NCBI GenBank assembly: GCA_024228395.1
Contig: JAAETM010000018.1
Span: 2,440 to 66,439 of the forward strand
Source: a bacterium
GTDB lineage: Bacteria > Planctomycetota > UBA1135 > GCA-002686595
Direction of reading: 5' to 3'
DNA: 64,000 bases
Shown here piece by piece: positions 14,225 to 49,717 of this stretch. How positions within the stretch are numbered: position 1 is the stretch's first letter; every line of letters begins with the position of its first letter. The notes under the pieces are model-generated. The model was not told where the DNA came from. It searched no databases and worked only from the letters and a program-made list of their open reading frames with translations. The translations under genes were made by a program, and so were the position numbers.

Positions 14225-14651
14225 ATTACGGGACTGGGCATGCCCCATGAAGAGACAGCTTCCCGTTTTGAAAGTCGGTTGAAATGGTGCGGTCCTTGAG
14301 AGTTTTCCAATCGCGTAGAGGGTAGCAATTGGGCGGGGTTGAAATGCGACTTCCAAAGGGCCCCGGGGCTCGCAATTCGCCCTTCGGTGGCTCCAAGGGG
14401 CCAGTATTAGGAGGCGTGGACACGCAGCGCCCAGAATGGGGCGTCGTCCCGAGGGAAGGGCATGTGGGGCTTGGATCCGCGCTATGCCAAGTCGCGTGAA
14501 CTTGACCATCACTGAACCCAACTTGGTTGTCTCTGGCTCCCCGAATCGGGGTATCATACGGCGGCTTCACTCCGCCCCTATTGTCCGCTTTTCCCAGCCC
14601 AAACCCCCCAGGCGCCAAGGCTGGAATCTCTCCACCAAGCACTCCGATTCC

Positions 14652-17600
14652 GTGAAATCACTCTCTTTCCATCTGCTCTGCCTTGGAGCTGTTCTTGGCC
14701 TTGTGGGACCCGAACAGGCCCAGGGGCAGGTAAGCCTGAACCCGAGTTCCCAGACGAGAACCCGCCGAATGGTGCAGTCTAGTGTCCAGTCCCTTCCCCG
14801 AGTGGCGTTCGAGCCCAATGTGGCGCGCGTCGAAGAAGGGGCTACTCCCCTGGCACTGAACCTGAGCCTCTCGCAGACGTCGGCATCTCCGGTTCAGGTA
14901 ACCCTGATCTCCACCGGCGAGGCGCAATTGGGCGTCGATTTCGATTTGAACACCCAGACGGTTACCTTTGCGCCGGGACAGACGACGGCACAGGTGATCT
15001 TGACCGCTCTCCCCGATGGGATCGCTGAAGGTGTGGAGACGATCGACTTGGCCCTGGGCATTCCGATCGCCTCCCGTGTGGGCGAAGGTGCGCGCCACCG
15101 ATTATTTTTGGCCGATGTGGGCGGAACGGGGTCCGGAGGCGTTTTGGTTTCGGATGACTTCGATCGCTGCGGCGGATTGTCGAGCCTGTGGTCTTTTGTG
15201 GACCCCTTGGGAGACGCCGTGGTGCAGGTGACGGGCATCGCGAGCGGTCAAGCACTTTTGGAAGTTCAGGTTCCCGCCGGAGTCCAGCACCAAGCATTGA
15301 ATTTGCTTTCTGCTCCACAGGTCTTGCAACCAATGGTTGCCGGCGACTTTGAAGTGGAAGTGGCTTTTACGGACAGCCCCGACGATGGAGAAATCTACGG
15401 GCTTCTGATCAAAGAGGATGGGCTCAATTGGTCGCGTTTCGACTTCTCTCGGAGTGGCGGCGCACTGCGGGCGTTCGCTGGCCGCACCATCTCGGGCAGC
15501 ACCACCAGGAAACTGGACACTTCCATAGCCGGAGGTGGTGCAGGGTTGTGGATGCGCGTGGGGCGCGTTGGAATCGAATACTCCATGCGCGTGTCCACCG
15601 ACGGTGTACTTTGGACCACACTCACCACCTTCTCCCACGGCATGGCGGCTTCGCAAGTGGGCCCCTACCTGGGCAATTTTGGTTCCCTGCCGGCAGCGCA
15701 GATGGCGGTGGATTATGTGTTCGATGCGGCTGCTCCAATCGTGCCGGAAGATAGCGGTATCCTGTCGAATCCGGTTCTAAACCTCATTTCAACGGGTTCT
15801 GGTAGTGCGTCAGCAATTCCCCCGGGGCCTATCTATGCCTGTGCAACCGACGTGACCCTGACGGCGGTTGCAAATCCGGGTTGGGCTTTTGATTCCTGGA
15901 CAGGGGACGTTTCCAGTACCACCTCGCCCATCGTGATCACCATGAATGGTCCCATGGATGTCACGGCTGTGTTTGTTTCCACCGTCAACCCCGCGGTGAT
16001 CTCGAATATTCAGGTCCTGCCTTCTCACCAGCATGCCGTGGTGACTTGGGACACGGACCAACCCACCGACTCCCTGGTGAACTTTGGAACCACGGCGGGT
16101 TATGGCAGCCAGGCCCAAGAGAGTGCCATGGTTTTGAACCACAGTGTGGTGTTGCCGGGACTGACGGAGCAGACCCAGTATCACTTCCAGGTGGTTTCCG
16201 TGAATGCCGGTGGGGATGTGGCCCAAAGTGCTGATGGATTGTTCACCACTATTGCAGCCTCGGTTCCCGCACTGATATCCGAGGACTTCAACGTATGTGG
16301 CGGTTTGCCCGCCGCTTGGACGTTTGTAGATGGGCCAAGCATGGATGGTAGCTTTGGTTTGCAGGGTGCGGGAACATCCGATGCGCAGCTGACGATTTCG
16401 GTTCCTGCCGGTAGCAACCATGATCCTTACGACAGCATTGAATGTCCGCGGGTGATGCAAACGATCGCGGATGTGGACTTCGAGGTCGAGGTCAAGTTCG
16501 ACAGCGAGATCGCTTTGGGTTATCAGATTCAAGGCATTCTCGTGGATCAGGATCTGACGAATTGGTTGCGTTTTGATGTCTATGGATCGCCCACGGGGCC
16601 GCGCTACTTTGCCGGTTCCAACGACGTCGGTGGAACCCAGCAATTGGCCGACGGCGCCCTGGGTGGCGTGGCTCCCTACTACTTGCGCGTTGGACGCAGC
16701 GGGGATCTGTGGACCTTTGAGCATTCCCCCGATGGCACGGTCTGGAACACGCTGGCGAGCTTCAGTAGGTCCCTCATTGTGGATCGGGTGGGGCCTTTTG
16801 CGGGCAACGCTGGCGTGAATGGGGCGGCTTCAGCCCCCGCGTTCACAGCCTTGTGCGACTACGTCTTCGACACCGCCGCGCCCATCGTCCCTGAGGATGG
16901 CAGCGTTGTCAGCGGAGGTCCCTTCACCCTGACAACCAGTGTTCCCGGGGGTGGCGGCAGCATCGATGTGATGCCGCTTTCCGCCACTTACAATTGCGGC
17001 GATTTGGTGGACTTGACCGCAACGGCAGAGTTGGGCTTCCTCTTCTCCGGTTGGTCTGGCGATCTGATCAGCCAGGACAATCCATTGCAGATTTCCATTG
17101 GTGCCAACATGGATATCTCGGCCAACTTCGCGCCGATTCCTGTTTCTCCTGTGATCTCCAATGTGCAGGTTGTGCCCGGCGATGTGGATGCATTGATCAC
17201 TTGGGAGACGGATTTGCCAAGCGATTCCCTGGTGAATTTCGGACCCACGTCGGCTTATGGCAGTCAGGCCCAGGACGGGGGCTTGGTCACGAGCCATCAA
17301 ATATTGATCACGGGACTGACCGAGCAGACCCAGTATCACTTCCAGGTGGTTTCTACCACCGCTGCCGGAGATTCTGCGCAGGGCACCGATCAGCAGTTCA
17401 CCACGCAGAGTACCGTGACTTCAGTTCTGATCTCCGACGACTTCAATGGTTGTGGGGGATTGGGTCCGTCGTGGACCTTCTTTGATTCGCCCGCATTGGA
17501 TGGGAGCTATGGCTTGCAGGGTATGGGCACAAACGATGCCCAGTTGTGGATTTCGATTCCCGGAGGCAGCGAGCACCGATCTTGGAATGCCTTGGGTGCG

Positions 17601-29716: not shown

Positions 29717-29738
29717 CAACAGAAGAAGTCCGTGGGAA

Positions 29739-29769
29739 AGCCGGATGCGGAAAATCTGCACATCCGGTT
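29739..29769 (+). ncRNA. Group II intron domain V
   Basis: AGCCGGAUGCGGAAAAUCUGCACAUCCGGUU: AGC triad, G:U at the second pair, an 8-bp lower helix, a 2-nt AC bulge on the 3' strand and a short upper helix with an A-rich loop. Confidence 0.7.
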
Positions 29770-29906
29770 TGATGAGGGGGATGGGGCATGGGCTCCATCC
29801 CTACTCTACTGCGAACCCAAAATCTCTCTCCTACTCGTCCCTCAATCCCAACCCCCACTTCACAGCGGACCCCAAGTGTTTCGCTTCCACGGCCCAGTGC
29901 CACAGC

Positions 29907-36589: not shown

Positions 36590-38491
36590 CTACTGGTTGT
36601 TGATCCCCATCAGGTCACCCGTATCATCCCAGCGGTTGCCTTTCATGTGGATGGGGCCATCCCCGTCGAGCACGCCGTATCGGTATTGACGGCCGAAGCG
36701 GTTGTTGATGATGCGTACGTTGGTGGGCGGGCCATGGCCCCGGCCCTTGTCGGTGATGTACAAGGTGAAATTGCCGCCGGACAACCAGTTGTTTTCGATG
36801 AGCACATCGTCGATGGGGCCCAGTCCGGTTTGAATGATCAGGCAGGCGTTGGACTTATAGGGCTCACCGATGTTGATCGGGATGTCGAAAAAGTTGCCCC
36901 GGAACACCATACCGGTGCCATCGCGGCTTTGGTTGGCATCCGCGTGGGCGCCTTCCGCTGTTCCAATATGGTGTACCCAGCAGTACTCCACGACCGAGCC
37001 ACTTGAGGTCTTGAATCCATCGCCCCCACTTTCGTGAATGTTCAGGCGTTGGGCGGTAAACCCCTCCCCGAACACGCAGGAACTATACACGTTGTAAACC
37101 TCACCATCTTGCAGCAGGATGCCATTGTTGCCAAAGTTGCACTGCACTCCGTAGCGAGAACCCTTGCCGTCGACAATGAAGTTGCGCACGGTCACGTTGT
37201 TGGCCCGAATCACCAGGGGACCCTCGATGTGCACATTCTCGATGACCGTTCCATCCTCCGTCACAGTGATGGGGCCCACCTTGCGAAGGGCTGAAGGGGC
37301 CCGGGGTCCGGTGTTGTGAGGTCCTGGTTTGACGCCATGGCCATCGGTACCGCCTGCTGGTTTGACCTGCAGGTGCACCGTTCGCTCACAGCTCCCTAGC
37401 TTGTTGCTCGCATTTGTGAAGAGGATTTTTGCGTCATAGGTTCCCGGCTTGAATTTAGCGATGGCGTCCTTGTCAAAGGACAAAGGCAGCAGCAGCTGAG
37501 CTCCGGGCGCTAGCTCGCCCGAGTGGCTCGGGAGTTTTAACCAGGCACTCTGGTTTTCTATCTTCCAGGACAGGGGTTTGGTTCCGATGTTGTGCAACCT
37601 CCAGCCACGGCTGGAGACCACCACCCCTTGCCCTTGGGCCGCTAGAATCGAAATGTCCTTGCTCGGACCGACCGACAGGTGTCCGTGGCCTCCATAGCCA
37701 CTGCCCGCGCGGAAGTTGTTGACGATCTGCTCTTTCTTGAGTGCCGTGTCGTAGATAGCCATTCTGAAAAGGTCGCCCAGCCAAGGCAAGGTCGCCCCCA
37801 GTTCGCTGGCCACGACCAAGCGGTAACTCGAGTCCCAGTTGCCCAAAGTGCCAGGCGTGTTTCTACTGCACTTCTGTGTGCCGTTCACAAATAAGCGAGT
37901 GGTGCCATCCTCTGCCTTGGTGTAGACCAGATGTTGAATGCCAAGCTGGGCAACGCCTGCCGGGGTTGTGTGCATGGGCTGCCCGTTCAAGTCTGTGAGC
38001 GTGGTGCGCAACCGCATGTTGAAAGTGTCGCTGGGCTCTTCCGTCCCGGGTCCTTGGCCCAGGGAGAAATTGCGCATGGTCGGTCCGTTGGAAATGCCAA
38101 TCAAGTGCGCCGTTCCACCGGGGGTCAGGTTGGTGGGCCGGATCCAGGCCTCCACGGTGAACTGTTGCGTTTTGCGGATGCGCTCGATCACCCGCCGTGC
38201 CGGCCCAACCGAGTTCAAGGTCGTGGGGGAGTGAATGCCCAGGCCCCCGGAAATCCAGTGGACAGCACCGGCATCCTTGATGACCAAATCCAGGGGGGGG
38301 AGAGCCCCCGAGACATCGTGCACCTTGGTTCCAGAGGCTTCGGCAAAACGGTACTCCACCAATAGGCCCGCTTTCTCCCGCAGGGGAGCCTCTTGTACCT
38401 TGGGCTTCTGTGCGGCACCAGACTCGCAAAGCCAGCCAGCCACCAAGAGAAACAGGCAGACGAAGTGTTGAGAAGGGGCGTATCTGGACAT
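36590..38491 (-). CDS. Secreted LamG (Laminin_G_3-like) + right-handed beta-helix protein, paralog 1
   Basis: Signal peptide FVCLFLLVAGWLCESGAAQ. LamG-like block LLVEYRFAEASG...FTVEAWIRP...PWLGDLFRMAIYDTALKKEQI. Beta-helix-like C-terminus ITVTEDGTVIENVHIEG...ANNVTVRNFIVDG...GAHADANQS...NRWDDTGDLMGINNQ. Confidence 0.75.
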   Translation of the reverse strand: MSRYAPSQHFVCLFLLVAGWLCESGAAQKPKVQEAPLREKAGLLVEYRFAEASGTKVHDVSGALPPLDLVIKDAGAVHWISGGLGIHSPTTLNSVGPARRVIERIRKTQQFTVEAWIRPTNLTPGGTAHLIGISNGPTMRNFSLGQGPGTEEPSDTFNMRLRTTLTDLNGQPMHTTPAGVAQLGIQHLVYTKAEDGTTRLFVNGTQKCSRNTPGTLGNWDSSYRLVVASELGATLPWLGDLFRMAIYDTALKKEQIVNNFRAGSGYGGHGHLSVGPSKDISILAAQGQGVVVSSRGWRLHNIGTKPLSWKIENQSAWLKLPSHSGELAPGAQLLLPLSFDKDAIAKFKPGTYDAKILFTNASNKLGSCERTVHLQVKPAGGTDGHGVKPGPHNTGPRAPSALRKVGPITVTEDGTVIENVHIEGPLVIRANNVTVRNFIVDGKGSRYGVQCNFGNNGILLQDGEVYNVYSSCVFGEGFTAQRLNIHESGGDGFKTSSGSVVEYCWVHHIGTAEGAHADANQSRDGTGMVFRGNFFDIPINIGEPYKSNACLIIQTGLGPIDDVLIENNWLSGGNFTLYITDKGRGHGPPTNVRIINNRFGRQYRYGVLDGDGPIHMKGNRWDDTGDLMGINNQ

Positions 38492-38655
38492 GATTGCGAA
38501 GCTGGACCAATGGGGAGTACTGGCTTTCAAGTTGACCCAAGCATAATCAAAATCCGGCCCGTTGGATGTTCTGCGGCGGGGTAAAATCGGCTCCAACAAA
38601 GATTGGGCTGGCACGGTCTCCCGAGCCAGCCCAATGTGCTTTCAAGCGGGGTGCG

Positions 38656-41265
38656 CTACTCGTTGTTGATCGACATCAGCTCGTCGTTGTCGTCCCAGCG
38701 ATTGCCGGAAATGAGCACGTAGCCGGTGATGTTGAGGACGCCGTAGCGGTAGTTGCGACCAAAGCGGTTGTTTAACAAACGCGCATTGGTGGGGTTGCCG
38801 TAGTTCGGGCGGCTTGAGCCCGGGGGCGGAAGCTTGTTCTCGATGTAAACCGTGAAATTGCCACCATCGAGCCAGTTGTCTTCGATCAGGATATTGTCGA
38901 TCGGGCCATCTCCAGTCTGCATGATGAAGGCTGCGTTTTGCTTGTAGGGTGCACCGATATCGATCGGCAGGTCCATGAAGTTTCGACGGAAGATGAAGTT
39001 GTTTCCCGAACGGGTTTGGTTGCAGTCCGAGTGGGCACCGGGCTTTGTACCTAGATGGTGCACCCAGCATTCCTCGACCACAACGTCATTGGTACACTTG
39101 AAGCCATCACCGCCACTGTCGTGAAGATTGAGACGTCGGGCTTCGAAGCCTCCCCCGTAGATGTGCGCACTATCCACATTGAATAGTTCACCATCTTCGA
39201 TCACGATGCCCGAGTGGCCTCCCGTGGCCCGGATGGCGTAGGGCGTGTTGCCCGGGTCCACTTTGAAGTTGCGGATCGTCACGTTGTTCGCCTCGATGAA
39301 GATGGTGCCGTGCACAAAGACGTTTTCAAGAACCGTCCCGTCTTGGGTGATGGTCAAGCCACCCACGTCATCCAGGATGCTCGGGTCGCTGGGTCCGGTG
39401 TTCTGCGGTCCAGGGCGTTCGCCGGATCCGGGACCGCTTTCGGTGATCACTCGCAGGTGAATGCTCTTTTCAGTGGTGCCGTAACTGCTCGTGTTGTTGG
39501 TGAAGTTGGCGACGGCCGCATAGGATCCGGGGGGCAGGGCCATGATTTGTGCTTGGTCCAATTGGATACCCGTGGTGGAGCCTTGCTCGGGAGCCAGGGT
39601 GCCGTTTGCACTGGCCAATGAGACCCAGGGTTGGTTCACACCAGCACTCCATTCCAGGCTCGCTGAACCCAGGTTGGAAAGGTCGAATTCATCCACGCTC
39701 ATGTAGATGCCTTGACCAAGGGTTGCGGTCACTTGGATCTGGGCGTTGGGCGTTACGCAGAGTTGACCCACCTCGGCCGCTCCACTGCCAGCCAAGCGGT
39801 TTTGATTGATCTCCGCCGGTGTGAGGGCGCGGTCGTAGATCGCCATCAGGAAAAGGTCTCCAAGCCAAGGACGGGACGCGCCAATTTCACCGGCGATCGC
39901 CATGCGATAGCTCGTGTCCCAATTGTCCATGTCTCCGCCAAGCTGATTTTGTGCTGCCACTTGCCCATTCACGAACAACCTGGATAGGCCATCTGCGCGT
40001 CGGGAATAAACCACGTGCTGCAGGCCTAGGGAGACACTGCCAGCGCTCGTTGTGAGCAGCGGCATGCCATCCAGGTCCGTGGCGCTGGTGCGGATGCGCA
40101 TGTTGAAGGTATCCTTGGGTTGGCTTCCCCAAAGGCCTTGGCCCAGTGTGAAGTTGCGTAGACTCGGCCCATTGGAAATGCCGAATATCCGGGCGGGTCC
40201 GTCTTGATTGAGGCTCGATGGGCGCAACCACGCCTCCACGGTGATTTCACCGCTCTGCTGGATGCTCTGGGTGGCCCTGGTGGCGGGCCCAGGCGTCGCG
40301 AGCAGGGTCGGGTTCGTAATCGATATTCCGCCGGGCAGCCAGGTGACTGAGTTGGGGTCTTCGATGGTCAGGTCAAGGGCCGGGCTGACTCCGGAAATGT
40401 CCTGAACGACGGAACCGCCGCCCTCTTCGAAGTGGTACTCCGCGAGCAAACCATTTGTGATGCGGCCCTCTTCTTCGCTGAATTCCACGGTGACATCAAT
40501 GATGTGGGCCTCTCCGGACCTCGGAACCATTTCGCCGGTGAGTTGTGTGTCGTAGGTCCCCCCTCCAAGGGCTCCAAGGATAACTTCGTCGACGGCGAGA
40601 GAGACCTCCTGTGTTTCCCCGGGTTCAAGCGGTTCATTGTTGGGGGTTTCAATCACGAGCCAAGCGTCCTCGCTCGTGAGGCTCCAATGGAGCGCTGCGT
40701 TGCCCGAGTTCGTGATGGTGACGGTTCCATTGGATCCGGATGATGCATTGTTTGAACTAGCTTGAATCGTAAGTTCACTTTCCGGCCTTATCTGGAGGAT
40801 TCCCCTGCTTGGCGGGCCGACCGAAAGCTGGAAGGGAATGAAGATGTCTCCCGCAGCGTTGCTCAGGGTCCGGAGTGTCAGGTTGGAAGGGTAGGCTCCC
40901 TCGGGTAGGCCTGCAGCTTGAGCCTGGTCGATCTCGACGGTCACCTCGGTTGAGGCCCCGGCAGTCAATATGCCTCCATTCGGAGTGGTTGTGAGCCAAG
41001 TCACCTCGGCGTCCATGCTCCACTGCACCACCTCCGACCCGAAGTTCTGGAGCGTGTAGGTTCTCGTTCCCTGGGGGAAAGGTCCCCCTTGGGGGCCTAT
41101 GATGTTAAAGACCGATCCATCGGACACGCCGGCTCCTAGCGTGATGGTGCCTTCATCTCCAGTTCCAACGGAACCGGAGGTGGGGCTGCAGGAGCCCAGG
41201 ATCGAAATGAGTGAGGCCAGGCCAATCAGGCCCAGCAGGTTGCGCTTGCGGTGTTTCGCGATCAT
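38656..41265 (-). CDS. LamG + beta-helix lipoprotein, paralog 2 (extra N-terminal Ig-like domains)
   Basis: Lipobox LISILGSC. LLAEYHFEEGGG...ITVEAWLRP...PWLGDLFLMAIYDRALTPAEI...GAHSDCNQT...NRWDDNDELMSINNE. Collinear with paralogs 1 and 3. Confidence 0.8.
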   Translation of the reverse strand: MIAKHRKRNLLGLIGLASLISILGSCSPTSGSVGTGDEGTITLGAGVSDGSVFNIIGPQGGPFPQGTRTYTLQNFGSEVVQWSMDAEVTWLTTTPNGGILTAGASTEVTVEIDQAQAAGLPEGAYPSNLTLRTLSNAAGDIFIPFQLSVGPPSRGILQIRPESELTIQASSNNASSGSNGTVTITNSGNAALHWSLTSEDAWLVIETPNNEPLEPGETQEVSLAVDEVILGALGGGTYDTQLTGEMVPRSGEAHIIDVTVEFSEEEGRITNGLLAEYHFEEGGGSVVQDISGVSPALDLTIEDPNSVTWLPGGISITNPTLLATPGPATRATQSIQQSGEITVEAWLRPSSLNQDGPARIFGISNGPSLRNFTLGQGLWGSQPKDTFNMRIRTSATDLDGMPLLTTSAGSVSLGLQHVVYSRRADGLSRLFVNGQVAAQNQLGGDMDNWDTSYRMAIAGEIGASRPWLGDLFLMAIYDRALTPAEINQNRLAGSGAAEVGQLCVTPNAQIQVTATLGQGIYMSVDEFDLSNLGSASLEWSAGVNQPWVSLASANGTLAPEQGSTTGIQLDQAQIMALPPGSYAAVANFTNNTSSYGTTEKSIHLRVITESGPGSGERPGPQNTGPSDPSILDDVGGLTITQDGTVLENVFVHGTIFIEANNVTIRNFKVDPGNTPYAIRATGGHSGIVIEDGELFNVDSAHIYGGGFEARRLNLHDSGGDGFKCTNDVVVEECWVHHLGTKPGAHSDCNQTRSGNNFIFRRNFMDLPIDIGAPYKQNAAFIMQTGDGPIDNILIEDNWLDGGNFTVYIENKLPPPGSSRPNYGNPTNARLLNNRFGRNYRYGVLNITGYVLISGNRWDDNDELMSINNE

Positions 41266-41660
41266 ACCTTCAACTACGGTTGCACCCTGAAGTTTGAGTG
41301 CTAACCGATGGAGTGGATACTCCTGTGCATGGTCCCCTAGGGGCCCACGCGGGCGAGATTGGCTGGCACCATTGCTTCTGATTTGTGCCGGCGGGTTCCT
41401 GCCTCCTCCACGGGCCCGCGATCATGGACCGCAGGGACGTGGGGAAACGAGTTCCCATGCCGGGGCCCCTGAGGGAGCCGTGGCGTGGTATCGACGACCC
41501 CCATTGGGACCCTTGATCGAGATGAGGAGTTTTTGAATTGGCCTGATCAGGTTGGGGCAGGGGCACTTGATGGGCGCCAGGGGGAGGGGCAAGCCTCAAA
41601 TAAAGACGGCGGGAGCGACCCAAGTGTCGCTCCCGCCGTCCAATAAATCTGGGCCTGAGA

Positions 41661-44261
41661 TCAGTTGTTGTTGATACTCATGAGCTGGCCATTGTCATCC
41701 CAGCGGTTTCCGGCCATGTAAACGTAGCCGGTGACCCGTAGCACGCCATAGCGGTTGTCCCGACCAAAACGGTTGTTGATCATCCTGCAGTTGGTGGGGT
41801 CCCCGTAATTCGGGCGGGTGGATCCGGGCGGCGGTACCTTGTTCTCAAAGTAGACCGAGAAGTTGCCCCCATTGATCCAATTGTCTTCGACCAATACGTT
41901 GTCGATGGGGCCGTCACCGGTTTGCATGATCCAGCAGGCGTTCTGCTTGTAGGGGGCTCCAATGTCGATGGGGATGTCGAAGAAATTACCTCGGAAGACG
42001 AAGTTCGACCCGCTACGCGTTTGGTTGCAGTCCGCATGGGCACCAGGTGCCGTACCGATGTGGTGAACCCAGCAGGATTCGACCAAAACATCGTTGGTTG
42101 CCTTGAAGCCATCGCCACCACTTTCGTGAAGGTTCAGTCTGCGTGCTTCGAAACCTCCCCCGTAGATGTGGGCACTGGCCACGTTGATCAGTTCACCATC
42201 TTCAATCACGATACCGTGCTTGCCGGAGTTGGCACGAATGCCATAGGGCTGACCACCGGCATCAATGATAAAGTTGCGCAAGGTAACGTTGTTGGCTTCG
42301 ATGTTCACGGCGCCAAAGACATGCACGTTCTCGATGACCGCACCATCTTGGGTGATCGTCATGCCGCCCACCGGTTGCAATGTGCTCGGATCGGAGGGCC
42401 CGGTGTTGTGAGCCCCCGGGCGGTTACCCGTACTCGGTGCACCGGGTTCGCTCACCGTGACCACCACCTCTCGCAGGGTCGAGCCATACAGGCTAGTTTG
42501 GTTCACCAGGCGCACCGTGGCCCGGTAGGTGCCCGCGGGCAAGGCCGCGATGGTAGCAGAGTCCAATTGTGTGCTGAGCGTCGTCGTTTGAGTGGACTGG
42601 AGAAAGCCGGACGAGCTTCCGAGGTTGAGCCACGATGCGTTCGAAGTACAGCTCCACTCCAATTCCTCGCCGCCGATGTTGGTCAATTGGTAATCGTCGA
42701 GGGACCCGGTGGGGCCGTTGCCACGGATGGCGCTGACATGCAATTCGTTGGCAGGCAGCGCGTTCAAGTGTCCCACGTTGCTGGTCCCGTTGCCCGCGGC
42801 CATGTTGAGGAGGATTTCGTTGGGAGTGAGCGCGTGATCGTAGACGGCGACCATGAACAGATCACCGATCCAGGGGCGGGAGGCCCCGATCTCGTTGGCC
42901 ACGGCTAAGCGGAAACTGGTGTCCCAGTTGGTTGTATTGCCAGCAATTTGCATCTCCTGGATCAAATACCCGTTCAGGTAAATCGACCCTCGACCATCGG
43001 TGTTCCGAACGTACACCAGGTGTTGCATTCCGATGGAAGCGGTTCCGGGGTTCGTAGTGATCAGGGGCATTCCGTCCAGGTTGGTGCCCGTGCTGCGCAA
43101 ACGCATGTTGAATGTGTCGCGAGGCCGACCTCCCCACAGGCCCTGGGCCAAGGTGAAGTTGCGCAAGTAAGGACCATTTGAGATCCCGATCAAACGGGCG
43201 GGCCCATGCTGGTTGACGTTTGCAGGTCGAATCCAAGATTCCACGGTCAGCTCGCCGGTTTGACGGATGGTCTCCGTGATCCGGGTAGCAGGGCCGGGGG
43301 TGGATAGCAATGTGGGAGAATGGATGTTCAGGCCGCTAGCCTGCCATTCCACCGCAGAAGGATCCTGAATGTGAAGGTCTTGCGGGGGCGCGACTCCGGA
43401 GGTGTCGTGCACGATCGAACCGGAGCCTTCTTCGAATAGGTATTCGGCGATCAATCCCTTGGTGACCCGGTTGCTTGGAGTTGGCGCCAATACCACGGTG
43501 ACGGGAATGGTCACGAGTTGCGAAGTGTTGGCCGTGTTTCGAATGGCCACCTGGCTCTGGTGGGTGCCTAGACCCAGAACAGAAAGCTCGGACTCCTTGA
43601 CGTAGACATTCAGGGTGTCTGTTTCGCCGGGCAGGAAGTGCGTGTCGCCGTTTGTGCCGAGGCGCAGCCAGCTATCCTGGGATTCGGCGGTCCAAGTCAT
43701 CGGTGATGAGCCCGTGTTCTCGATGGCGATCTCCCCATCGATCTCGTTGTCAGCGGCAGCCGCGTTGGTCTGGATGGCAAGGCCGCCAGACGGCTGGGCC
43801 CGGAAGAAGGCTGTGCTTCCAGGCATCACATTCAGATTGAGGGCTAGGTAAGTCTCACCACCGACGTTGTTCCGAGTCTGTAGCCTGAGCTCTGTGGGGT
43901 AGGTGCCCACGGCCAGGCTGGAGGCCAGCGCCTGATCAATCTCCACGATCACCGGGATTTCCTGATCGGGTCCGAGCAAGCCGCTCGAAGGGGTCGCGTT
44001 CAACCAAGCGTGACTGGAGCACATGCGCCAAACGGCGGCTTCCCCAGAGTTGTTGCGAAGTTGAACGGTATGGGTTCCGGACGGAAAGGGTCCACCCATG
44101 GGGCCGTCGATCTCAATCGCTCGTGTGGTGCTTAGGATCACCACATCTTCCCCGTCTCCCGAGTCGTCTGAAATGCTTGAAGAGCAAGCGGCAGCCATGA
44201 AGAGAGCAATCGGTGCGAGCAAGTACACATGAGCTCGACACCATTCGAATTGTTGGATCAT
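41661..44261 (-). CDS. LamG + beta-helix lipoprotein, paralog 3 (extra N-terminal Ig-like domains)
   Basis: Lipobox LFMAAAC (start ATG 44261). LIAEYLFEEGSG...LTVESWIRP...PWIGDLFMVAVYDHALTPNEI...GAHADCNQT...NRWDDNGQLMSINNN. Confidence 0.8.
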   Translation of the reverse strand: MIQQFEWCRAHVYLLAPIALFMAAACSSSISDDSGDGEDVVILSTTRAIEIDGPMGGPFPSGTHTVQLRNNSGEAAVWRMCSSHAWLNATPSSGLLGPDQEIPVIVEIDQALASSLAVGTYPTELRLQTRNNVGGETYLALNLNVMPGSTAFFRAQPSGGLAIQTNAAAADNEIDGEIAIENTGSSPMTWTAESQDSWLRLGTNGDTHFLPGETDTLNVYVKESELSVLGLGTHQSQVAIRNTANTSQLVTIPVTVVLAPTPSNRVTKGLIAEYLFEEGSGSIVHDTSGVAPPQDLHIQDPSAVEWQASGLNIHSPTLLSTPGPATRITETIRQTGELTVESWIRPANVNQHGPARLIGISNGPYLRNFTLAQGLWGGRPRDTFNMRLRSTGTNLDGMPLITTNPGTASIGMQHLVYVRNTDGRGSIYLNGYLIQEMQIAGNTTNWDTSFRLAVANEIGASRPWIGDLFMVAVYDHALTPNEILLNMAAGNGTSNVGHLNALPANELHVSAIRGNGPTGSLDDYQLTNIGGEELEWSCTSNASWLNLGSSSGFLQSTQTTTLSTQLDSATIAALPAGTYRATVRLVNQTSLYGSTLREVVVTVSEPGAPSTGNRPGAHNTGPSDPSTLQPVGGMTITQDGAVIENVHVFGAVNIEANNVTLRNFIIDAGGQPYGIRANSGKHGIVIEDGELINVASAHIYGGGFEARRLNLHESGGDGFKATNDVLVESCWVHHIGTAPGAHADCNQTRSGSNFVFRGNFFDIPIDIGAPYKQNACWIMQTGDGPIDNVLVEDNWINGGNFSVYFENKVPPPGSTRPNYGDPTNCRMINNRFGRDNRYGVLRVTGYVYMAGNRWDDNGQLMSINNN

Positions 44262-44667
44262 ACTTTTCCTGATGAAAATCAATCTGTTCGACTGCGGATT
44301 AGACCTAGGGCATGCACCGGAGCCCCGGGCTTCCTTCAAGGGATACCGGGGGCCACCGATCAGCGTGAAGCTTGCAGGCGAACGGAAATAGATTTGGAGA
44401 GATTGGGGAGCAGCCCAGTTCTAGCGCGGAGTGAGAGAGCCTGTATGCGCTGACTGCCACATGTGATCGTTTGCCGTACGGCCCCCGATCGGTAGCGTAT
44501 TTTTATGAAAAAAGGCGCAGCATTCCAAGAGTTCAGCCGACGAAGAGTTTTTTTGCCGGCGGACCCCCGCCCCAGGGCCTCCCAAGGGGGGGGCGGGCAC
44601 AGGATTTCCCGGGATCATCGCACATCGGGGGCGTGGGCTTTCCGACCAAAGGATGTGGCAAATTCAC

Positions 44668-44686
44668 AAAAAGCCGCATCTGCGGC
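44668..44686 (-). terminator. Weak intrinsic-terminator candidate downstream of the sugar-transferase gene
   Basis: The minus strand reads gccgcagatgcggc followed by ttttt. The stem is only 5 bp, about 220 nt past the stop at 44908. Confidence 0.3.
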
Positions 44687-44907
44687 CTTAGCAGGCCGCC
44701 TGAAAACAGCAATACCCCATCGAGCCCTCACAAACCGTCTGACTGCGTTGTCACAACCCCGCAAATAGGGCGACTGTGCGGGGAACCCGAGCGCCTTGCC
44801 AGGCGATTTGTGAGCACTCGGCCGGGAAGCCGCTGATCTTCAGGCGTCCTGCCTTGGGGATCGAACCCGGTTTCCGATGGAGGATCCGGGCAGAGTGGGG
44901 TGGGGCT

Positions 44908-46092
44908 TTAATAGGCGCCGCGCCCACTGATGACCGCACCGAAGGTCTTCAGGATTAGCTTCACGTCGAACCAGAAGGAACGCTTCTGTTGATACTCGAT
45001 ATCCATGCGCACCCACTCTTCGAACTTGATTTCGCTGCGCCCGCTCACTTGCCAAATGCAGGTAATGCCACCCGTGCGATCCAAGCGTTTGTGCTGCCAC
45101 AGGGAATATTTCTCCACTTCGTCGAGCGTGGGCGGACGCGGGCCGATGAGGGTCATGTCCCCGCGTAGTACATTGTAGAGCTGGGGCAATTCGTCGATGC
45201 TGGTTTTGCGCAAGTAACGTCCCACACGGGTGATGCGTGGGTCGTTCTTCATCTTGAAGATCGGACCACTTTTCTCGTTGCGGCCCTGGAGGCTAGCCCT
45301 GCGCGCATCCGCGTCCAAGTACATGGATCGGAACTTGTAGAACTTGAAAGGCACTCCACCTAGGCCAGCTCGAAGCTGGGTGTAGATAGCCGGCCCGGGT
45401 GAGGACAAACGCACAGCCAATGCCGCTCCGATCAGAACGGGGGAGAGCACAAGGAGCGATGTGCTAGACACCAGAATGTCAATGAATCTGCGGCCCCAAC
45501 CAATCGGCTGCAAAAAAGCCCTAGACAGGTCCTGGGCTGTCGCGGGGGTTGCTGATTTCGCAACGAGCTCAGACCCTTGGGGTTGCTTTGAGGGGGCTTC
45601 ATTCAGCCGATCACTGCAATCCTCTTGATTGGGCGAGGTGTCTGATTTCAACGGATAGCTGCAGATCTCGTATGAGATGTTGTGTGCTTCACCGAGCAGC
45701 GGGTCACGGAATTGACTCAAGCTGTTTTCGGCGAACGTGCGTGCTCCTGCCGGATGGGTTTCAGGGAGTAGGACGGCCAAGTGCTTGCTATCCAAGCTGC
45801 CGAGCAGATCATACAGACGCATCAATTCGAGCAGGTGCTCGGCCAGGGGGCACAGGTTGTAATCATCCCCGCCTTCCTTCCAGAAAACCACCATACAGAA
45901 CGCGCGTCCATTGCGATCGGTCCGTGACCGCTCGCGTTGGAATGCTTCTGCTAGCTCTTCGACCCCCAAGGCTCCAGGAACCGCCATGGAGTGGCGAAAC
46001 ATGGACCGGATGGAGGCCCAAGCGCCGGGTCTATCCTTCTGAAGGTTGTTGAACATTCGTTGCGGGGAATTGCGGGGGGGCTTTTGCCTCAT
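44908..46092 (-). CDS. Polyprenyl-phosphate glycosyl-1-phosphate transferase (bacterial sugar transferase, WbaP/WcaJ-type catalytic domain) with an N-terminal degenerate GGDEF-like domain
   Basis: C-terminus: PGPAIYTQLRAGLGG.PFKFYKFRSM...DPRITRVGRYLRKTSIDELPQLYNVLRGDMTLIGPRPP. N-terminus (aa ~55-125): RNGRAFCMVVF...MRLYDLLGSLDSKHLAVLLPETHPAGARTFAE aligns to the GGDEF-domain core R..D...R.GGDEF.vlLPeT....A...Ae. Confidence 0.8.
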   Translation of the reverse strand: MRQKPPRNSPQRMFNNLQKDRPGAWASIRSMFRHSMAVPGALGVEELAEAFQRERSRTDRNGRAFCMVVFWKEGGDDYNLCPLAEHLLELMRLYDLLGSLDSKHLAVLLPETHPAGARTFAENSLSQFRDPLLGEAHNISYEICSYPLKSDTSPNQEDCSDRLNEAPSKQPQGSELVAKSATPATAQDLSRAFLQPIGWGRRFIDILVSSTSLLVLSPVLIGAALAVRLSSPGPAIYTQLRAGLGGVPFKFYKFRSMYLDADARRASLQGRNEKSGPIFKMKNDPRITRVGRYLRKTSIDELPQLYNVLRGDMTLIGPRPPTLDEVEKYSLWQHKRLDRTGGITCIWQVSGRSEIKFEEWVRMDIEYQQKRSFWFDVKLILKTFGAVISGRGAY

Positions 46093-46289
46093 GGGGCTAC
46101 CAGATAAACTTTCGGCACTTGAGTATGTTGCAGTTCACTTCCGAAGAATATTTGGAGTGGAATGGGGACTCAAGGTGAGAATGATTGTCAGTGCTGGGGG
46201 GTCAGAGGGTTTTGGCAGGGCCAGTAGGCCCGCTTACGTGGTCTTTCTGAGGGCCCCATCGTATCAAGGCGTATGAGGCTTGTGAGCAA

Positions 46290-47315
46290 TCACTGGCCAT
46301 GTTCTGATTCTTCCACCGCCCGAATCACGTCCCGAACAGAGACGGCATCCATGGAGGCTGGGGGCAGGGGGATCCCGCTGGGGGCTGCAGGGTGGCGGAT
46401 CACCTTGTGTTGGGTCCCATAGGGTCCGGTCCGCAGTGGGTCCGCTGGGCCAAACAGGGCGATCACGGGCAGCCCTAGTGCGCTCGCCAGGTGCATGGGG
46501 CCGGTGTCACACCCGATAAAAAGGTCACATTTCGACAAGACGGCCATCAGCTCCGGCAAACTTGTTTGGCCCAGGAGATCCACGAAGCGGGGATTGCCAG
46601 CCAGTCGATCGCGGGTGGGAGCTGCGTCCTGTTCGTCCCCAGGGCCTCCGGTCAACACCACCCCAGTTTTGCGTTTTCCTAGCAGGCCTTCGATGAGGTC
46701 CGCATACCGTTCTGGAGCCCACCGGTTTTCAGGCTTGGATGCACCGATATGGACAACAACAGGGCCGGGTTCGAGATCGCTCAACCAGGTCTTGGCTCGC
46801 GCTTGAATCACCGTGGGAATCGGTGGTAGGGGATGGGTCACAGGACCGCAGCAACCCAAGAAGGAAGCGAACTCCCCGTATTGATCGACCATGTGGTGAC
46901 GGGGCGGTCCACTGGGGATGAGTTCTCCGTACAGCAGCCAGGCACCCTCCTTGCAGCGGCTGCGGTCAAAACCCAGGACTCGCGCCGCTCCAGAAAGTCG
47001 GGCCAATACCGCGCTCTTGAGCATACGCTGTAAGTCGATCACTAGGCCATAGCGCTGTTTTCTCAACTCCCGCCGCAGGGCAGGTAGCGCTCGGACCATT
47101 CCCTTGCGTGGAAATCTGTGCACGGTGTCCACCGAGGGATTGCCTTGCAACAATGGTTCCGCCAAGGGATGTGTGAGCCAACCCACATGCACGCTGGGGT
47201 ATTGTCGCTTGATTGCTGCAGCCAGGGTGAGCGCATTGACCACATCTCCGATGGCTCCCAGGCGTATGATCAAGACGCGTTGGGGGATGGCGGGATTGAT
47301 GCTCTTTGCGGGCAT
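46290..47315 (-). CDS. Family 9 glycosyltransferase (heptosyltransferase-like)
   Basis: VLIIRLGAIGDVVNALTLAAAIKRQYP...IGCDTGPMHLASALGLPVIALFGP. Confidence 0.8.
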   Translation of the reverse strand: MPAKSINPAIPQRVLIIRLGAIGDVVNALTLAAAIKRQYPSVHVGWLTHPLAEPLLQGNPSVDTVHRFPRKGMVRALPALRRELRKQRYGLVIDLQRMLKSAVLARLSGAARVLGFDRSRCKEGAWLLYGELIPSGPPRHHMVDQYGEFASFLGCCGPVTHPLPPIPTVIQARAKTWLSDLEPGPVVVHIGASKPENRWAPERYADLIEGLLGKRKTGVVLTGGPGDEQDAAPTRDRLAGNPRFVDLLGQTSLPELMAVLSKCDLFIGCDTGPMHLASALGLPVIALFGPADPLRTGPYGTQHKVIRHPAAPSGIPLPPASMDAVSVRDVIRAVEESEHGQ

Positions 47316-47550: not shown

Positions 47551-48324
47551 CTACGCGGCTTCTTCGTCATCACCCGAACCGGGCTCTTCAAAGCTGTCTT
47601 CGAAGGCGAGGTTTTCCAACTTCCGCATCTTCACATAGTCCACGAAGATGTCCGAGTACCCGCAAAATTGCTCGCTGAAAAGAGCGCCGACGAAGGCCAT
47701 ATCTCCCATCATGCGGCGTTGGCGCACGGAGATTTCGCCCTGGATCAATTGGTCGGAGTTGGGAAGCATGAACGCGGCGGAAAGGGGCATATCGGGGTGC
47801 AGTTGCCTTCCTTCCTCCTGCGAGAGCGTGATGCCAATGCCTTCTGTGGAAATGTCGTAGATCTTGCCGGTGAATTGGGTGGAACCATCAGCGACTTTGA
47901 CGTCAATGACCTTTCCCTTGTCCGGGTGTACACGGTTGTTCCTACGCCGGCTGAAGTAGCGCCCCATGGCGTTGTCCAACTGGGAGTAGAGGTTGCCCGT
48001 GTTGATGAACTGGAGCGCGATCAAGGTTTGACCAGGTCCTTGGGGCACACTTCGAATCACCTTTGCCGGGGTGCACACCGACCAGCCGTGCATGGGGTGG
48101 GCTAGGGTGAATTGCAGCACGTCCCCCTCATTGATCTCGGCAACGAGGTCCTCGGGCGCGATGACCGCCGAGCCTTCTATGGTCAGGTCGTACAGATCGG
48201 CCGGCGCCATGTCGCCGTTGGAAAGATCAAGCTCAACTACCAAGGTTTCGGAGTCGGGGATAGCGTTGCGCTTCAATTCCCGGCGGCAAGTGATGGGTTG
48301 AACGCACTTTTTATGGAAGAACAT
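47551..48324 (-). CDS. PilZ-domain protein (c-di-GMP receptor) with an N-terminal beta-rich domain
   Basis: Canonical RxxxR (RRNNR) and D/NxSxxG (DISTEG) motifs with the usual spacing. Start taken at ATG 48324. Confidence 0.8.
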   Translation of the reverse strand: MFFHKKCVQPITCRRELKRNAIPDSETLVVELDLSNGDMAPADLYDLTIEGSAVIAPEDLVAEINEGDVLQFTLAHPMHGWSVCTPAKVIRSVPQGPGQTLIALQFINTGNLYSQLDNAMGRYFSRRRNNRVHPDKGKVIDVKVADGSTQFTGKIYDISTEGIGITLSQEEGRQLHPDMPLSAAFMLPNSDQLIQGEISVRQRRMMGDMAFVGALFSEQFCGYSDIFVDYVKMRKLENLAFEDSFEEPGSGDDEEAA

Positions 48325-48415
48325 GGCTCTCCGGAGGCATTGTGTACAGAGGACAGAACATGTTGCTTTTCGACCGGGGCCGCCTATCTGCCTAACTGCA
48401 ATTTCGTGACGGAAA

Positions 48416-49717
48416 TCAGTTTCCCGATTTGGGCCACGGGAAGTCCCCGCCGATGGGCAATCGCTGCACTTCGAAAAGCACCGCGACCAACTCACGGTCA
48501 CGGCCCGCCCGGTGGGGGTTATGGAATTCCCAAACCACCCGGCCGTCGGGGGCGATTTCCTGGGCCAAACCGGCGCAGGACAGGCTCACGAGGGTATTGC
48601 CATTCTTCAAACGCCGCACGTTTCCAGAGAAGATTGAGACGAAGGAGCTTTCGGGGGTGCCGTGGTGAATCCATGGCATTTTATGGGTGATCGGGTCCCA
48701 CTCCACCAGCCGCGTGAAGCCTCCCTGCCCCATGTTGTCAAAAATCAGCAGATTGCCAGAGTCCAACCCGGACACGGAGTGGGGGCCATGCCAGGGACCT
48801 TCGGCCATCCAAACGATCTTGTTTTGCTCCGTGTTTAGGATTGCAACAGCATTCACATCTCGGAAGCACAGGAGCCAATCCCCGGTGTTCACGCGGGACA
48901 AGCGCGCAGCCAGGGACTCTGGAACCGGGTCTACCGAGTTGTTGTGCAGCACGTCGCCACCTTGTTTTGCATGTTGCAAGAGGAATGAGCTCCATCGTGA
49001 TTGGAAGAGAGCTTCGTAGATGGAGGTGCGTTTGATGAGAGCGCCGGTTTCTAAATCAATCTGGCAAAGCGCATCCTCTACCACAGGCTCTTCATTCTCC
49101 AAATAGGGCAGGAATCGGCCATCTCGCGAGAGCGTAAAGATGCGCCCATTCGCTACTTCGAAGTCGTGGTGGGCTCCCCCATCCCAATACCAAAGCAGGT
49201 TGGAGTCGTGGTCCAATCGCGCGAGTCCGAGTCCCTCGTAACAAACGAGCAGATCACCTTCGGGAAGCAGGTGCACCTTGCGCCAGGTGAGTTGGGATCG
49301 GCGCGTGGGCGTGCGCTCGCTAGGGACTTGGTCGAAGGGTAGGGCCCAGCTGTGGAGCACTTTGCCCTGCATGTCCATCAGGGTTGCTTCGGGGGCGTGG
49401 CCGCTGCAATACAGGTTGTATCCATCCTGGGCCGCCTCCCGGTCGTACAGCACCACGCCGGTTTGGATCTTGGCCTGTTCATAACCGGTTGCGTAGCCGG
49501 TGCTGGCCAGGTGTTCGAGCTGCCGTCGGGTCTCGTCATCCAAAGCCCCCGTGCCCTGGGGAAACCGCACGTCCTGCCAAAAGCCATCAGGGTGATCCTG
49601 GGCGGATTGTAGGTGGGGCCTGTCCTCCTCATCGGCGCACGCAATCCCCGCGAAAAGGGCCAGGAGGGCTAGCAGCGGGGCCCGTTTGGGGTAAGAACTG
49701 GCTTGGGGGGCAAACAT
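48416..49717 (-). CDS. Secreted beta-propeller protein, arylsulfotransferase (ASST)-like
   Basis: Lipobox LFAGIAC. Motifs HHDFEV.NGRIFTL and VLHNNSVDP recall the ASST family. The call is tentative. Confidence 0.45.
   Translation of the reverse strand: MFAPQASSYPKRAPLLALLALFAGIACADEEDRPHLQSAQDHPDGFWQDVRFPQGTGALDDETRRQLEHLASTGYATGYEQAKIQTGVVLYDREAAQDGYNLYCSGHAPEATLMDMQGKVLHSWALPFDQVPSERTPTRRSQLTWRKVHLLPEGDLLVCYEGLGLARLDHDSNLLWYWDGGAHHDFEVANGRIFTLSRDGRFLPYLENEEPVVEDALCQIDLETGALIKRTSIYEALFQSRWSSFLLQHAKQGGDVLHNNSVDPVPESLAARLSRVNTGDWLLCFRDVNAVAILNTEQNKIVWMAEGPWHGPHSVSGLDSGNLLIFDNMGQGGFTRLVEWDPITHKMPWIHHGTPESSFVSIFSGNVRRLKNGNTLVSLSCAGLAQEIAPDGRVVWEFHNPHRAGRDRELVAVLFEVQRLPIGGDFPWPKSGN

Follow-up and report, generated by a model that had tools for sequence, protein, structure and literature searches.

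A shortened GGDEF-like domain fused to a priming phosphoglycosyl transferase as a candidate c-di-GMP receptor

The gene at 44908..46092 (minus strand) of the 64,000-nt planctomycete DNA analysed here (the window) encodes a protein of 394 residues in which a degenerate GGDEF-like domain is joined, through a linker, to a small monotopic phosphoglycosyl transferase (PGT). We lean towards reading this fusion as the PGT that primes synthesis in a Wzx/Wzy-type heteropolysaccharide cluster and that carries its own c-di-GMP receptor, a catalytically dead mini-GGDEF domain with an inhibitory site (I-site); the binding of c-di-GMP and its effect on catalysis are both inferred. A broader proposal, for which we see even chances, is that the domain is a widespread sensor that lets c-di-GMP act directly on the priming PGT, by a nucleotide-bridged pairing of domains that involves an RxxD motif and an arginine provided in trans. 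Judging from alignments, the family's most conserved residues are the three of the WspR-type I-site (R92, D95 and R60). The open reading frame has an ATG start; going by the homologue P0001, the true start may instead be M13 (nt 46056).

Architecture of the fusion protein

What kind of transferase is this? The sequence-only reading had seen a bacterial sugar transferase in the C-terminal part, and profile searches leave that identification standing: Bac_transf covers aa 201-388 (E=1.2e-61; 207.8 bits against a cutoff of 27; profile positions 1-178 of 179) and WbaP is matched with E=6e-44 in an alignment that pairs the DE dyad, KFRSM and GPRP. In the fusion these motifs are K253-F-R-S-M, D300-E301 (within SIDELPQL; nt 45190-45195) and G317-P-R-P, and they lie in the monotopic PGT catalytic domain (aa 198-394; 44911..45501, minus strand). 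The EPS_sugtrans, WbaP and WcaJ profiles match the same part, and the nearest sequence matches are hexose-1-P transferases (EpsZ, WbaP, WcaJ), all of them under their equivalog cutoffs. Foldseek searches with the AlphaFold model returned PglC (E=1.2e-13) and WbaP (E=9e-11); the modelled fold is PglC-like, with helices 199-215 and 217-230 flanking a break at S217-P218. This helix-break-helix is the predicted re-entrant membrane helix (aa 199-232; 45397..45498, minus strand), supported by the model and by the PglC and WbaP structural matches, and it would place both domains of the protein on the cytoplasmic face. As far as sequence and model can tell, the C-terminal domain is an intact small monotopic PGT of the PglC/WbaP type, its transferase activity and sugar specificity being inferred.

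A low-complexity linker, predicted to be disordered and of differing length among homologues (aa 152-197; 45502..45639, minus strand), connects the PGT to the N-terminal domain (aa 27-151; 45640..46014, minus strand), whose limits come from the HMM envelope, PDB profile matches, the AlphaFold model and Foldseek. As a single sequence this domain stays under the Pfam threshold for GGDEF (PF00990; 17.1 bits, E=0.005, cutoff 23.8), with only profile positions 57-138 matched. How, then, can it be recognised as a GGDEF homologue? A profile of three sequences matches a canonical cyclase with RYGGDEF (P0061) at E=1.6e-8 among 1.84 billion proteins, and a 44-sequence family profile matches the GGDEF domains in the PDB (E=2.9e-13 for 3ign, 2.2e-11 for 5euh and ~1e-8 for WspR). 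Pfam recognises GGDEF in 29 of 150 family relatives, GGDEF_2 in 12 and, weakly, PelD_GGDEF in 2. The AlphaFold model, computed from a 106-sequence alignment (a single-sequence run of the whole protein reached only pLDDT 37), has a pLDDT of 86.3 and a pTM of 0.80, with pLDDT >90 across most of the N-terminal domain. The structured core of this domain (helix 44-61, strand 65-72, helix 81-90, strands 96-101 and 104-110, helix 114-127 and strand 139-146) has a palm-type α-β-α-β-β-α-β order which, in the model, can be superimposed on GGDEF structures. Foldseek matched it to about 45 GGDEF structures with probability 1.00 and a target-normalised TM of up to 0.64; in the top 50, all matches other than four to PGTs (PglC, WbaP) are GGDEF domains. 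The HMM comparison and the structure prediction both place the domain in the GGDEF superfamily, as had been proposed earlier for aa ~55-125.

In HMMER alignments to solved GGDEF domains, RLYD falls at the RxxD I-site and DSKHL (aa 101-105; 45778..45792, minus strand) at GGEEF, and five residues separate the two. This bears out two further claims of the sequence-only reading, that DSKHL replaces the GG[DE]EF catalytic motif and that the RxxD lies exactly five residues upstream. GG(D/E)EF occurs in none of 158 family domain copies, and the residues at the DSKHL position are variable. All alignments to solved diguanylate cyclases (DGCs) contain a deletion of ~9 aa at the GTP/metal segment D-x-FK-x-x-ND-x-x-GH, where the family has a loop of 12-14 aa compared with 23 aa in P0061, and the C-terminal third of the canonical fold is absent. 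An active diguanylate cyclase is excluded by the missing GG(D/E)EF together with the deleted GTP/metal segment. Profiles and model confirm the N-terminal domain as a mini-GGDEF homologue of ~110-120 aa, which has lost more than the signature motif.

Conservation of the I-site residues and their possible ligand

What could such a domain still bind? The RxxD motif R92-L-Y-D95 (45808..45819, minus strand; a separate pattern match also begins at 45819) aligns in the family profile with WspR R242/D245, the primary I-site, and R60 (45913..45915, minus strand) aligns with WspR R198, the I-site arginine that comes from the neighbouring GGDEF domain. R313 of PleD, the secondary I-site arginine in α1, is presumably another counterpart of R60. 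R92 and D95 are each conserved in 100% of 159 family domain copies and R60 in 99%; the complete triad occurs in 158 of the 159, and in all 70 copies within PGT fusions. This second arginine, together with the recurrence of the fusion across phyla, makes the case stronger than it was in the sequence-only reading. An independent set of genomes, not chosen on these positions, has R60 in 33/33 and E54 in 32/32. Variants with two or three N-terminal domains in tandem keep the triad intact in every copy, which is consistent with a site formed by two domains. In WspR both arginines touch c-di-GMP, and the R242A and R198A mutants each purify nucleotide-free (PMC2270323). Ahead of the motif, R90 (83% of the family) extends it to RxRxxD, and further highly conserved positions are E54, G98, L109, T112, A117 and Y146-P147. 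Arginine and aspartate at the RxxD positions, together with the α1 arginine, are fairly frequent in ordinary GGDEF domains, so the conservation may be partly inherited or structural.

The α3 arginine that is used in PleD (R390) and is essential in PelD (R402) has no equivalent here. By alignment offset its position is N123, not conserved in the family, where D/E/K/R are mixed and Asp/Glu prevail; in needing R402, PelD is unlike the fusion. An earlier comparison with PelD survives in part: the proposed type of receptor, one with an I-site, is supported by the sequence evidence, but with the α3 arginine absent the site is nearer to that of WspR than to that of PelD. The absence of this arginine, with which affinity could be low, counts against a receptor; WspR has a lysine there.

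How might binding be passed on to the transferase? In the mechanism that we propose, an intercalated c-di-GMP dimer would sit on the RxxD of one N-terminal domain while R60 from another completes the site, the arrangement seen in WspR and PleD. The nucleotide would so pair two N-terminal domains, either across protomers or, in the double and triple tandem variants, within one chain, and this pairing would change PGT activity or the assembly with partner enzymes. High c-di-GMP would be expected to activate polysaccharide synthesis, an expectation that rests on analogy with PelD, PssE, BcsA and Alg44 and for which there are no data here. The geometry of the I-site may differ, since the mini-GGDEF lacks the C-terminal third. 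Small monoPGTs are also reported to be active as monomers (PMC12802240), which leaves a dimerisation switch without an evident catalytic reason.

Could the domain work without any ligand? It might be a structural or interaction module that serves dimerisation or the docking of Wzc, Wzx or glycosyltransferase partners, with the two arginines and the aspartate needed for folding or for an interface. The heavy truncation, the missing PelD/PleD α3 arginine and the structural appearance of the conserved E54, G98, L109, T112, A117 and Y146-P147 would all suit such a module, and the EpsW-EpsZ pair is a precedent for PGT control through protein contact (PMC12802240). However, the three most invariant charged residues match the experimentally defined WspR triad exactly, and tandem copies retain them, as do the one split gene examined (L007) and members from six phyla with differing neighbours, where one would expect a lineage-specific protein interface to have drifted. 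We consider a ligand-independent role unlikely.

Is c-di-GMP the right ligand? The same pocket might accept 3'3'-cGAMP, another cyclic dinucleotide, (p)ppGpp or a nucleotide sugar. Some hosts (Desulfobacterota, Myxococcota) belong to groups that use cGAMP made by Hypr-GGDEF enzymes; the α3 helix differs from that of PelD and PleD, and R90 adds an arginine to the motif. GGDEF domains have also been crystallised with (p)ppGpp, and two such structures (PDB 9g85/9g86) are among the Foldseek matches. Yet the active-site pocket for GTP, and as we assume for (p)ppGpp, is deleted, and characterised RxxD I-sites all bind c-di-GMP (PMC2270323, PMC8461298, PMC4125290), which makes another ligand quite improbable. 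That the domain is a functionless remnant of a former DGC-PGT fusion is scarcely tenable: it is shortened and its catalytic machinery eroded, but residues that stay invariant in at least ~150 clusters (50% identity) from at least six phyla, the duplication of some copies and a confident model (pLDDT >90 across most of the domain) speak for strong purifying selection.

Distribution and genomic neighbourhood

The family was recovered by exhaustive profile search, word-indexed homologue searches having given just two or three relatives. It counts at least ~150 protein clusters at 50% identity, mostly with the same mini-GGDEF/PGT fusion; MAE45626.1 is one of the family's accessions. A search of other genomes for this fusion, as the sequence-only reading had suggested, finds it recurring in at least six phyla: Planctomycetota, Proteobacteria, Desulfobacterota, Myxococcota, Spirochaetota and Acidobacteriota. 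Does the domain also exist by itself? In the one case examined on a long contig (L007), an apparent stand-alone domain turned out to be a split or frameshifted fusion gene; true stand-alone domains are unproven, and most short matches sit on short contigs. Cultured hosts are Methyloglobulus morosus KoM1, Deltaproteobacteria bacterium IMCC39146 and probably Fontivita pretiosa B-254. Family members are labelled in databases as "hypothetical" or as generic glycosyltransferase, and surveys by domain annotation would probably overlook the fusion because the mini-GGDEF falls under the Pfam threshold. No publication on a GGDEF-like/PGT fusion was found in the literature searched, although a mention in the supplementary data of O'Toole et al. 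2021 is not excluded. The initial impression of an undescribed arrangement is kept to that extent, but it is not a one-off; it belongs to a sizeable unannotated family.

In the window, a polysaccharide gene cluster surrounds the fusion gene. Directly upstream, on the same strand, lies a gene for a GT9-family glycosyltransferase (46290..47315, minus strand), kept in the nearest relatives (L070, L003, L098), and two genes upstream one for a PilZ-domain protein (47551..48501, minus strand) with RxxxR (RRNNR) and DxSxxG (DISTEG) intact. Three paralogous secreted BACON/LamG proteins are encoded directly downstream (36590..44339, minus strand). Related loci were collected with a hand-built degenerate DNA pattern (at least 120 matches) that favours D101/LP.T/GA members, and they form a sample, not a census. 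A BACON/LamG partner follows the fusion gene in 7 of 40 of these loci (Planctomycetota). The PilZ neighbour is kept only in the nearest clade and, present in just 2/40, was rejected as a family-wide partner. Wzx, Wzy, Wzz and BY-kinase genes are neighbours of the relatives' fusion genes, which usually stand within Wzx/Wzy-type polysaccharide clusters. What does this context say about c-di-GMP? The setting in a polysaccharide cluster counts in favour of a receptor function, as does the PilZ receptor encoded two genes upstream, whose motifs are intact; the lack of any cyclase or phosphodiesterase gene in the window and the confinement of the PilZ linkage to the nearest clade count against it. 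No c-di-GMP riboswitch was found in the intergenic regions flanking the fusion gene, and a promoter/terminator scan gave nothing exceeding shuffles.

Known c-di-GMP receptors and PGT regulation

PssE from Listeria monocytogenes binds two c-di-GMP per protein with a Kd of 0.79 uM and is required for EPS synthesis (PMC4125290). Like the fusion, it has an unrelated pentapeptide (DKDDA versus DSKHL) in place of GG(D/E)EF, with RxxD five residues upstream, and its gene lies inside a polysaccharide cluster, the pss exopolysaccharide operon. PssE, however, is not part of a larger fusion, its GGDEF domain is of full size, and it works in a synthase-dependent system with the BcsA-like PssC; the domain studied here is truncated and covalently joined to the PGT that primes a Wzx/Wzy-type pathway. 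PelD and BcsE bind c-di-GMP via RxxD (PMC8461298). PelD of Pseudomonas aeruginosa is likewise a degenerate GGDEF protein with RxxD, it has dimeric c-di-GMP bound and controls its polysaccharide post-translationally at the inner membrane (PMC8461298), but it contains a GAF domain as well as four TM helices, and its target is a GT4 (PelF) complex in which no PGT takes part. WspR and PleD share the I-site, at which c-di-GMP bridges two GGDEF domains. They are active enzymes in which the I-site mediates product inhibition, whereas the I-site of the fusion, in a protein without the active site, could act only as a sensor. How are other PGTs regulated? The PGT fusions of O'Toole, Imperiali & Allen 2021, as cited in PMC12802240, also combine a PglC-like core with an N-terminal domain; the reported regulatory fusions carry receiver domains, and the text consulted makes no mention of a GGDEF-like one. 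In EpsW-EpsZ of Myxococcus, regulatory input also arrives at the initiating PGT; unlike the mini-GGDEF, EpsW is a separate response regulator and acts on a large monoPGT.

Why would a sensor be placed at this enzyme? The priming PGT uses the shared undecaprenyl-phosphate pool, which makes it a logical control point. Polysaccharide synthesis under direct c-di-GMP control is well documented where it depends on a synthase, as for cellulose, alginate, Pel, PNAG and Listeria Pss, and it is mainly there that direct post-translational control has been characterised. How Wzx/Wzy-dependent pathways are controlled after translation is called poorly understood (PMC12802240). The receptor hypothesis is directly testable, with three predicted binding residues and cultured hosts at hand. 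If it is true, several hundred genes now labelled "hypothetical" or "generic glycosyltransferase" could be re-annotated, and a new minimal c-di-GMP-binding module of ~110 aa, overlooked by current domain databases, would be added to those known. A c-di-GMP sensor built into a priming PGT would be a new regulatory architecture, and in Wzx/Wzy-dependent and related pathways the first committed membrane step would come under post-translational control by a second messenger.

Homology of the two halves

The gene at 44908-46092 (minus strand) is a real ORF encoding 394 aa from an ATG, and its true start may be nt 46056 (M13), since the related protein P0001 starts at the equivalent position. The Pfam domain Bac_transf spans aa 201-388 (E=1.2e-61), and aa 198-394 align end to end with the catalytic domain of WbaP (E=6e-44) and also with PglC (E=3e-31). 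NCBIfam matches, to EpsZ, WbaP and WcaJ-type polyprenyl glycosylphosphotransferases, cover the C-terminal catalytic part only, where K253-F-R-S-M, the D300-E301 dyad within SIDELPQL, and GPRP are conserved. These matches and motifs establish the C-terminal half as an intact priming phosphoglycosyl transferase (PGT), as the sequence-only reading had recognised. An AlphaFold2 model of the protein, built with a 106-sequence family alignment (pLDDT 86.3, pTM 0.80), has a helix-break-helix (199-215/217-230) around S217-P218, which in monotopic PGTs forms the re-entrant membrane helix. With this topology the active site and the N-terminal domain both lie on the cytoplasmic face, where c-di-GMP occurs. 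The two halves are joined by a linker of ~45 residues, predicted to be disordered and variable in length among homologues.

But is the N-terminal domain really GGDEF-like? On its own, the window protein matches Pfam GGDEF at aa 78-152 with 17.1 bits, below the cutoff (23.8). Four further lines of evidence answer yes, as that reading had proposed. A three-sequence profile (the window protein and two close relatives) gave 12 weak matches in the PDB, 11 of them GGDEF domains, with HMMER aligning RLYD on RxxD and DSKHL/DDRHL on GGEEF. Searched exhaustively against 1.84 billion representative proteins, the same profile retrieved 520 clusters at E<=1e-3, including the textbook cyclase P0061 (...DALTGLANR...IDLDDLKRINDRLGHPAGD...RYGGDEF...; E=1.6e-8); among the best 150 of these, Pfam recognised GGDEF in 29, GGDEF_2 in 12 and PelD_GGDEF in 2. 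A 44-sequence family profile matched the solved GGDEF domains 3ign (E=2.9e-13), 5euh (2.2e-11) and the WspR entries (~1e-8). Finally, the modelled fold (alpha44-61, beta65-72, alpha81-90, beta96-101, beta104-110, alpha114-127, beta139-146) was compared with the PDB by Foldseek: apart from PglC and WbaP, matched by the C-terminal half, the top 50 were all GGDEF domains with probability 1.00.

What the domain has lost and kept

The N-terminal domain is a stripped-down GGDEF domain. All alignments to solved cyclases contain a ~9-residue deletion at the D-x-FK-x-x-ND-x-x-GH metal/GTP-binding segment, and family members connect beta1 to alpha2 by 12-14 aa, where canonical P0061 has 23 aa. GG(D/E)EF is found in 0/158 family copies, its place being taken by a variable pentapeptide, commonest D-x-x-[HR]-[LIV]; the loss of the catalytic motif, read earlier from DSKHL alone, thus holds for the family. 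The domain ends after beta4 (~aa 147-151), without the C-terminal third of a normal GGDEF domain. An active cyclase is excluded by the loss of segment, motif and C-terminal third, and the domain is a cytoplasmic, catalytically dead GGDEF fold.

What has been kept? Across 159 domain copies aligned with L-INS-i, E54, R60, R92, D95 and G98 are the sole positions conserved at >=98%, and the triad R60/R92/D95 is intact in 158 copies, including all 70 within PGT fusions. An independent pattern search agreed with the position first reported for RLYD, the RxxD motif (aa 92-95; nt 45819-45808, minus strand). HMMER aligns R92 and D95 with R242 and D245 of WspR, and R60 with R198, the arginine that precedes R242 by 44 residues. 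In WspR, c-di-GMP at the I-site is held by R242 together with R198 from a neighbouring GGDEF domain (De et al. 2008, PMC2270323), and the R242A and R198A proteins are each nucleotide-free on purification (PMC2270323). What survives in the family after loss of the active site is therefore exactly the triad of a WspR-type inhibitory site. As an independent check, 33 fusion proteins were collected from genomes with a DNA pattern that does not constrain R60, E54 or R57; among the matches listed, these were present in 33/33, 32/32 and 31/33, respectively. Position 90 is arginine in 83% of the family and leucine in the window protein, and many members have an RxRxxD motif.

The comparison with PelD made in the sequence-only reading stands for RxxD and fails for the alpha3 arginine. 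This arginine is R402 in PelD and R390 in PleD. The position is, by offset, N123 in the window protein and mixed D/E/K/R in the family. WspR has a lysine where PelD and PleD have arginine, so the site is WspR-like rather than PelD-like. In PelD, R402 is "absolutely required" (PMC8461298).

Distribution and genomic setting

Far from being a singleton, the fusion forms a family. Of the best 150 of 520 clusters, 58 have one N-terminal domain plus PGT, 5 have two and 1 has three; most others are short (110-196 aa) and largely from short contigs. In the one short case checked on a long contig, locus L007, a 208-aa Bac_transf is encoded by the next, overlapping ORF, which makes it a split or frameshifted fusion gene. 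There (7001-8118) the 173-aa mini-GGDEF ORF overlaps its neighbour by ~30 nt in a different frame on a contig rich in short ORFs, and could be either a long-read-assembly frameshift artefact or a genuinely split sensor/enzyme pair. Two or three tandem domains precede the PGT in P0005 (630 aa), P0006, P0037, P0046, P0137 (517-536 aa), P0091 (390 aa, Bac_transf part incomplete) and L006; one tandem cluster includes a Deltaproteobacteria MAG protein. The triad is kept in every tandem copy, which would fit a ligand site formed between two domains.

A degenerate DNA pattern (R..D..G..D-x7-LP.T...GA), covering 41% of family copies and excluding canonical cyclases, hit at least 120 stretches in species-representative genomes. 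The same fusion, which the sequence-only reading suggested looking for elsewhere, occurs in several phyla: among the matches listed, at least 34 stretches encode a strong N-terminal domain together with Bac_transf in a single ORF. Their sources are Planctomycetota (Planctomycetia, Phycisphaerae, Tepidisphaerales, Gemmataceae), Beta- and Gammaproteobacteria, Desulfobacterota/Thermodesulfobacteriota, Myxococcales, Spirochaetota and Acidobacteria. Among the cultured hosts are Methyloglobulus morosus KoM1 and Deltaproteobacteria bacterium IMCC39146; the match in Fontivita pretiosa B-254 is incomplete at the edge of the locus. Public labels of members include "hypothetical protein" and "sugar transferase", and one short member is a "GGDEF domain-containing protein". 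The pattern also found a second population, mostly from Planctomycetota and Halomonas/Vreelandella, of 300-450 aa proteins without a PGT domain and with a weaker, C-terminal match (25-66 bits) to the mini-GGDEF profile (L015, L016, L032, L037, L040, L043, L046, L047, L067, L076, L086 and others), presumably other degenerate GGDEF proteins with D replacing the first G.

In the window, the fusion gene lies in a polysaccharide cluster (~25.5-53 kb) with three GT2s, GT28-C, a pyruvyl transferase with FrhB-like partner, a methyltransferase, a MATE/Wzx-like transporter and GT9, and encodes the only PGT found there. In relatives it is first in, or inside, Wzx/Wzy-type clusters: L010 reads BY-kinase-like, PGT, GT4, Wzx, Wzy, GT4, WecG, GT2; L007 has Wzz/GNVR, the split PGT, GT2 and Wzy, with a GGDEF protein close by; and L002 has a string of GTs. 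Wzz, GNVR, ParA-type kinases, Polysacc_synt, Poly_export, WecG and GT4 recur across 17 loci from several phyla. Directly flanking the gene in the window are, upstream, GT9 and a PilZ protein and, downstream, BACON/LamG proteins; these neighbours are conserved within its own clade alone (2/40 loci for PilZ, 3/40 for GT9, 7/40 for BACON/LamG), with PilZ and GT9 together only in the closest relatives, L070 and L003. The PilZ protein (47551-48501, minus strand), two genes upstream, has intact RxxxR (RRNNR) and DxSxxG (DISTEG); an apparent degenerate PilZ-like half (DLTIEGSAV) precedes this canonical C-terminal domain, resembling YcgR, and translation probably begins downstream of the annotated GTG. 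Downstream, 36590-44339 (minus strand) encodes three large paralogues of 674, 869 and 892 aa, all secreted, in which BACON and LamG domains occur together with a C-terminal region resembling, by eye, a parallel beta-helix. In 7 of the 40 loci, all Planctomycetota, a homologue directly follows the fusion gene. Such proteins could be enzymes that process the glycan, or targets that the pathway glycosylates.

The window has no cyclase or phosphodiesterase gene, and the search for a c-di-GMP riboswitch beside the PGT gene was negative. The non-coding gaps on either side of that gene are unusually long (44340-44907, 568 bp downstream; 46093-46289, 197 bp upstream); they gave no match to an Rfam family, and promoter and terminator signals in them did not rise above those of shuffled sequence. 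Within the cluster, near the pyruvyl transferase gene, there is an Rfam match to a group II intron (domain V/VI) at 29736-29809 (plus strand; 46 bits, gathering score 40). Elsewhere, 14436-20591 (plus strand) encodes a 2051-aa surface protein (Calx-beta, fn3, DUF1349/GH43_C2 lectin-like, InlB B-repeat-like and purple-acid-phosphatase N-terminal domains), then an 812-aa relative. At 6595-14557, further upstream than the cluster, three genes resemble sugar C-methyltransferases (Methyltransf_13/14/23) and one encodes an NDP-sugar epimerase/dehydratase, which suggests that a glycan made by this region has branched or methylated deoxysugars.

A possible second-messenger input

What, then, does the domain do? 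Degenerate GGDEF I-site receptors are already established (PelD, PssE, BcsE and others), and on balance we lean towards a c-di-GMP receptor, with binding inferred. R92 and D95 would bind intercalated dimeric c-di-GMP, and R60 of a second domain would complete the site in trans, as in WspR and PleD; tandem variants could pair two domains within one chain, and single-domain proteins such as the window's would pair by dimerisation. By analogy with PelD, PssE, BcsA and Alg44, polysaccharide synthesis would be expected to be activated at high c-di-GMP; the effect on catalysis is unknown. Relief of auto-inhibition or partner recruitment is as plausible as a dimer switch, especially because small monoPGTs are reported to work as monomers (PMC12802240). 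The domain could instead be a ligand-independent interaction module, an unlikely reading; that it has a different nucleotide as ligand is more doubtful still. A functionless remnant, for all that the domain has lost, is scarcely credible for a triad invariant across phyla and tandem copies.

How much of this is new? Monotopic PGTs with extra domains, receiver domains included, are known (O'Toole et al. 2021, as cited in PMC12802240). A full-text literature search found no publication joining GGDEF to Bac_transf, phosphoglycosyl or priming transferases in this way, in line with the earlier impression of an undescribed arrangement; a mention in O'Toole et al. 2021 is not excluded. Both the fusion and the minimal form of the domain, which falls below the Pfam threshold and so is invisible to domain-annotation surveys, appear to be undescribed. 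According to the 2025 mBio paper (PMC12802240), c-di-GMP control is characterised for synthase-dependent systems and post-translational regulation of Wzx/Wzy-type pathways is incompletely understood. The direct second-messenger input at the priming step of such pathways that the fusion would imply, itself predicted, also appears undescribed. Homology and motifs provide strong evidence; function so far rests on prediction, but the hypothesis can be tested at once.
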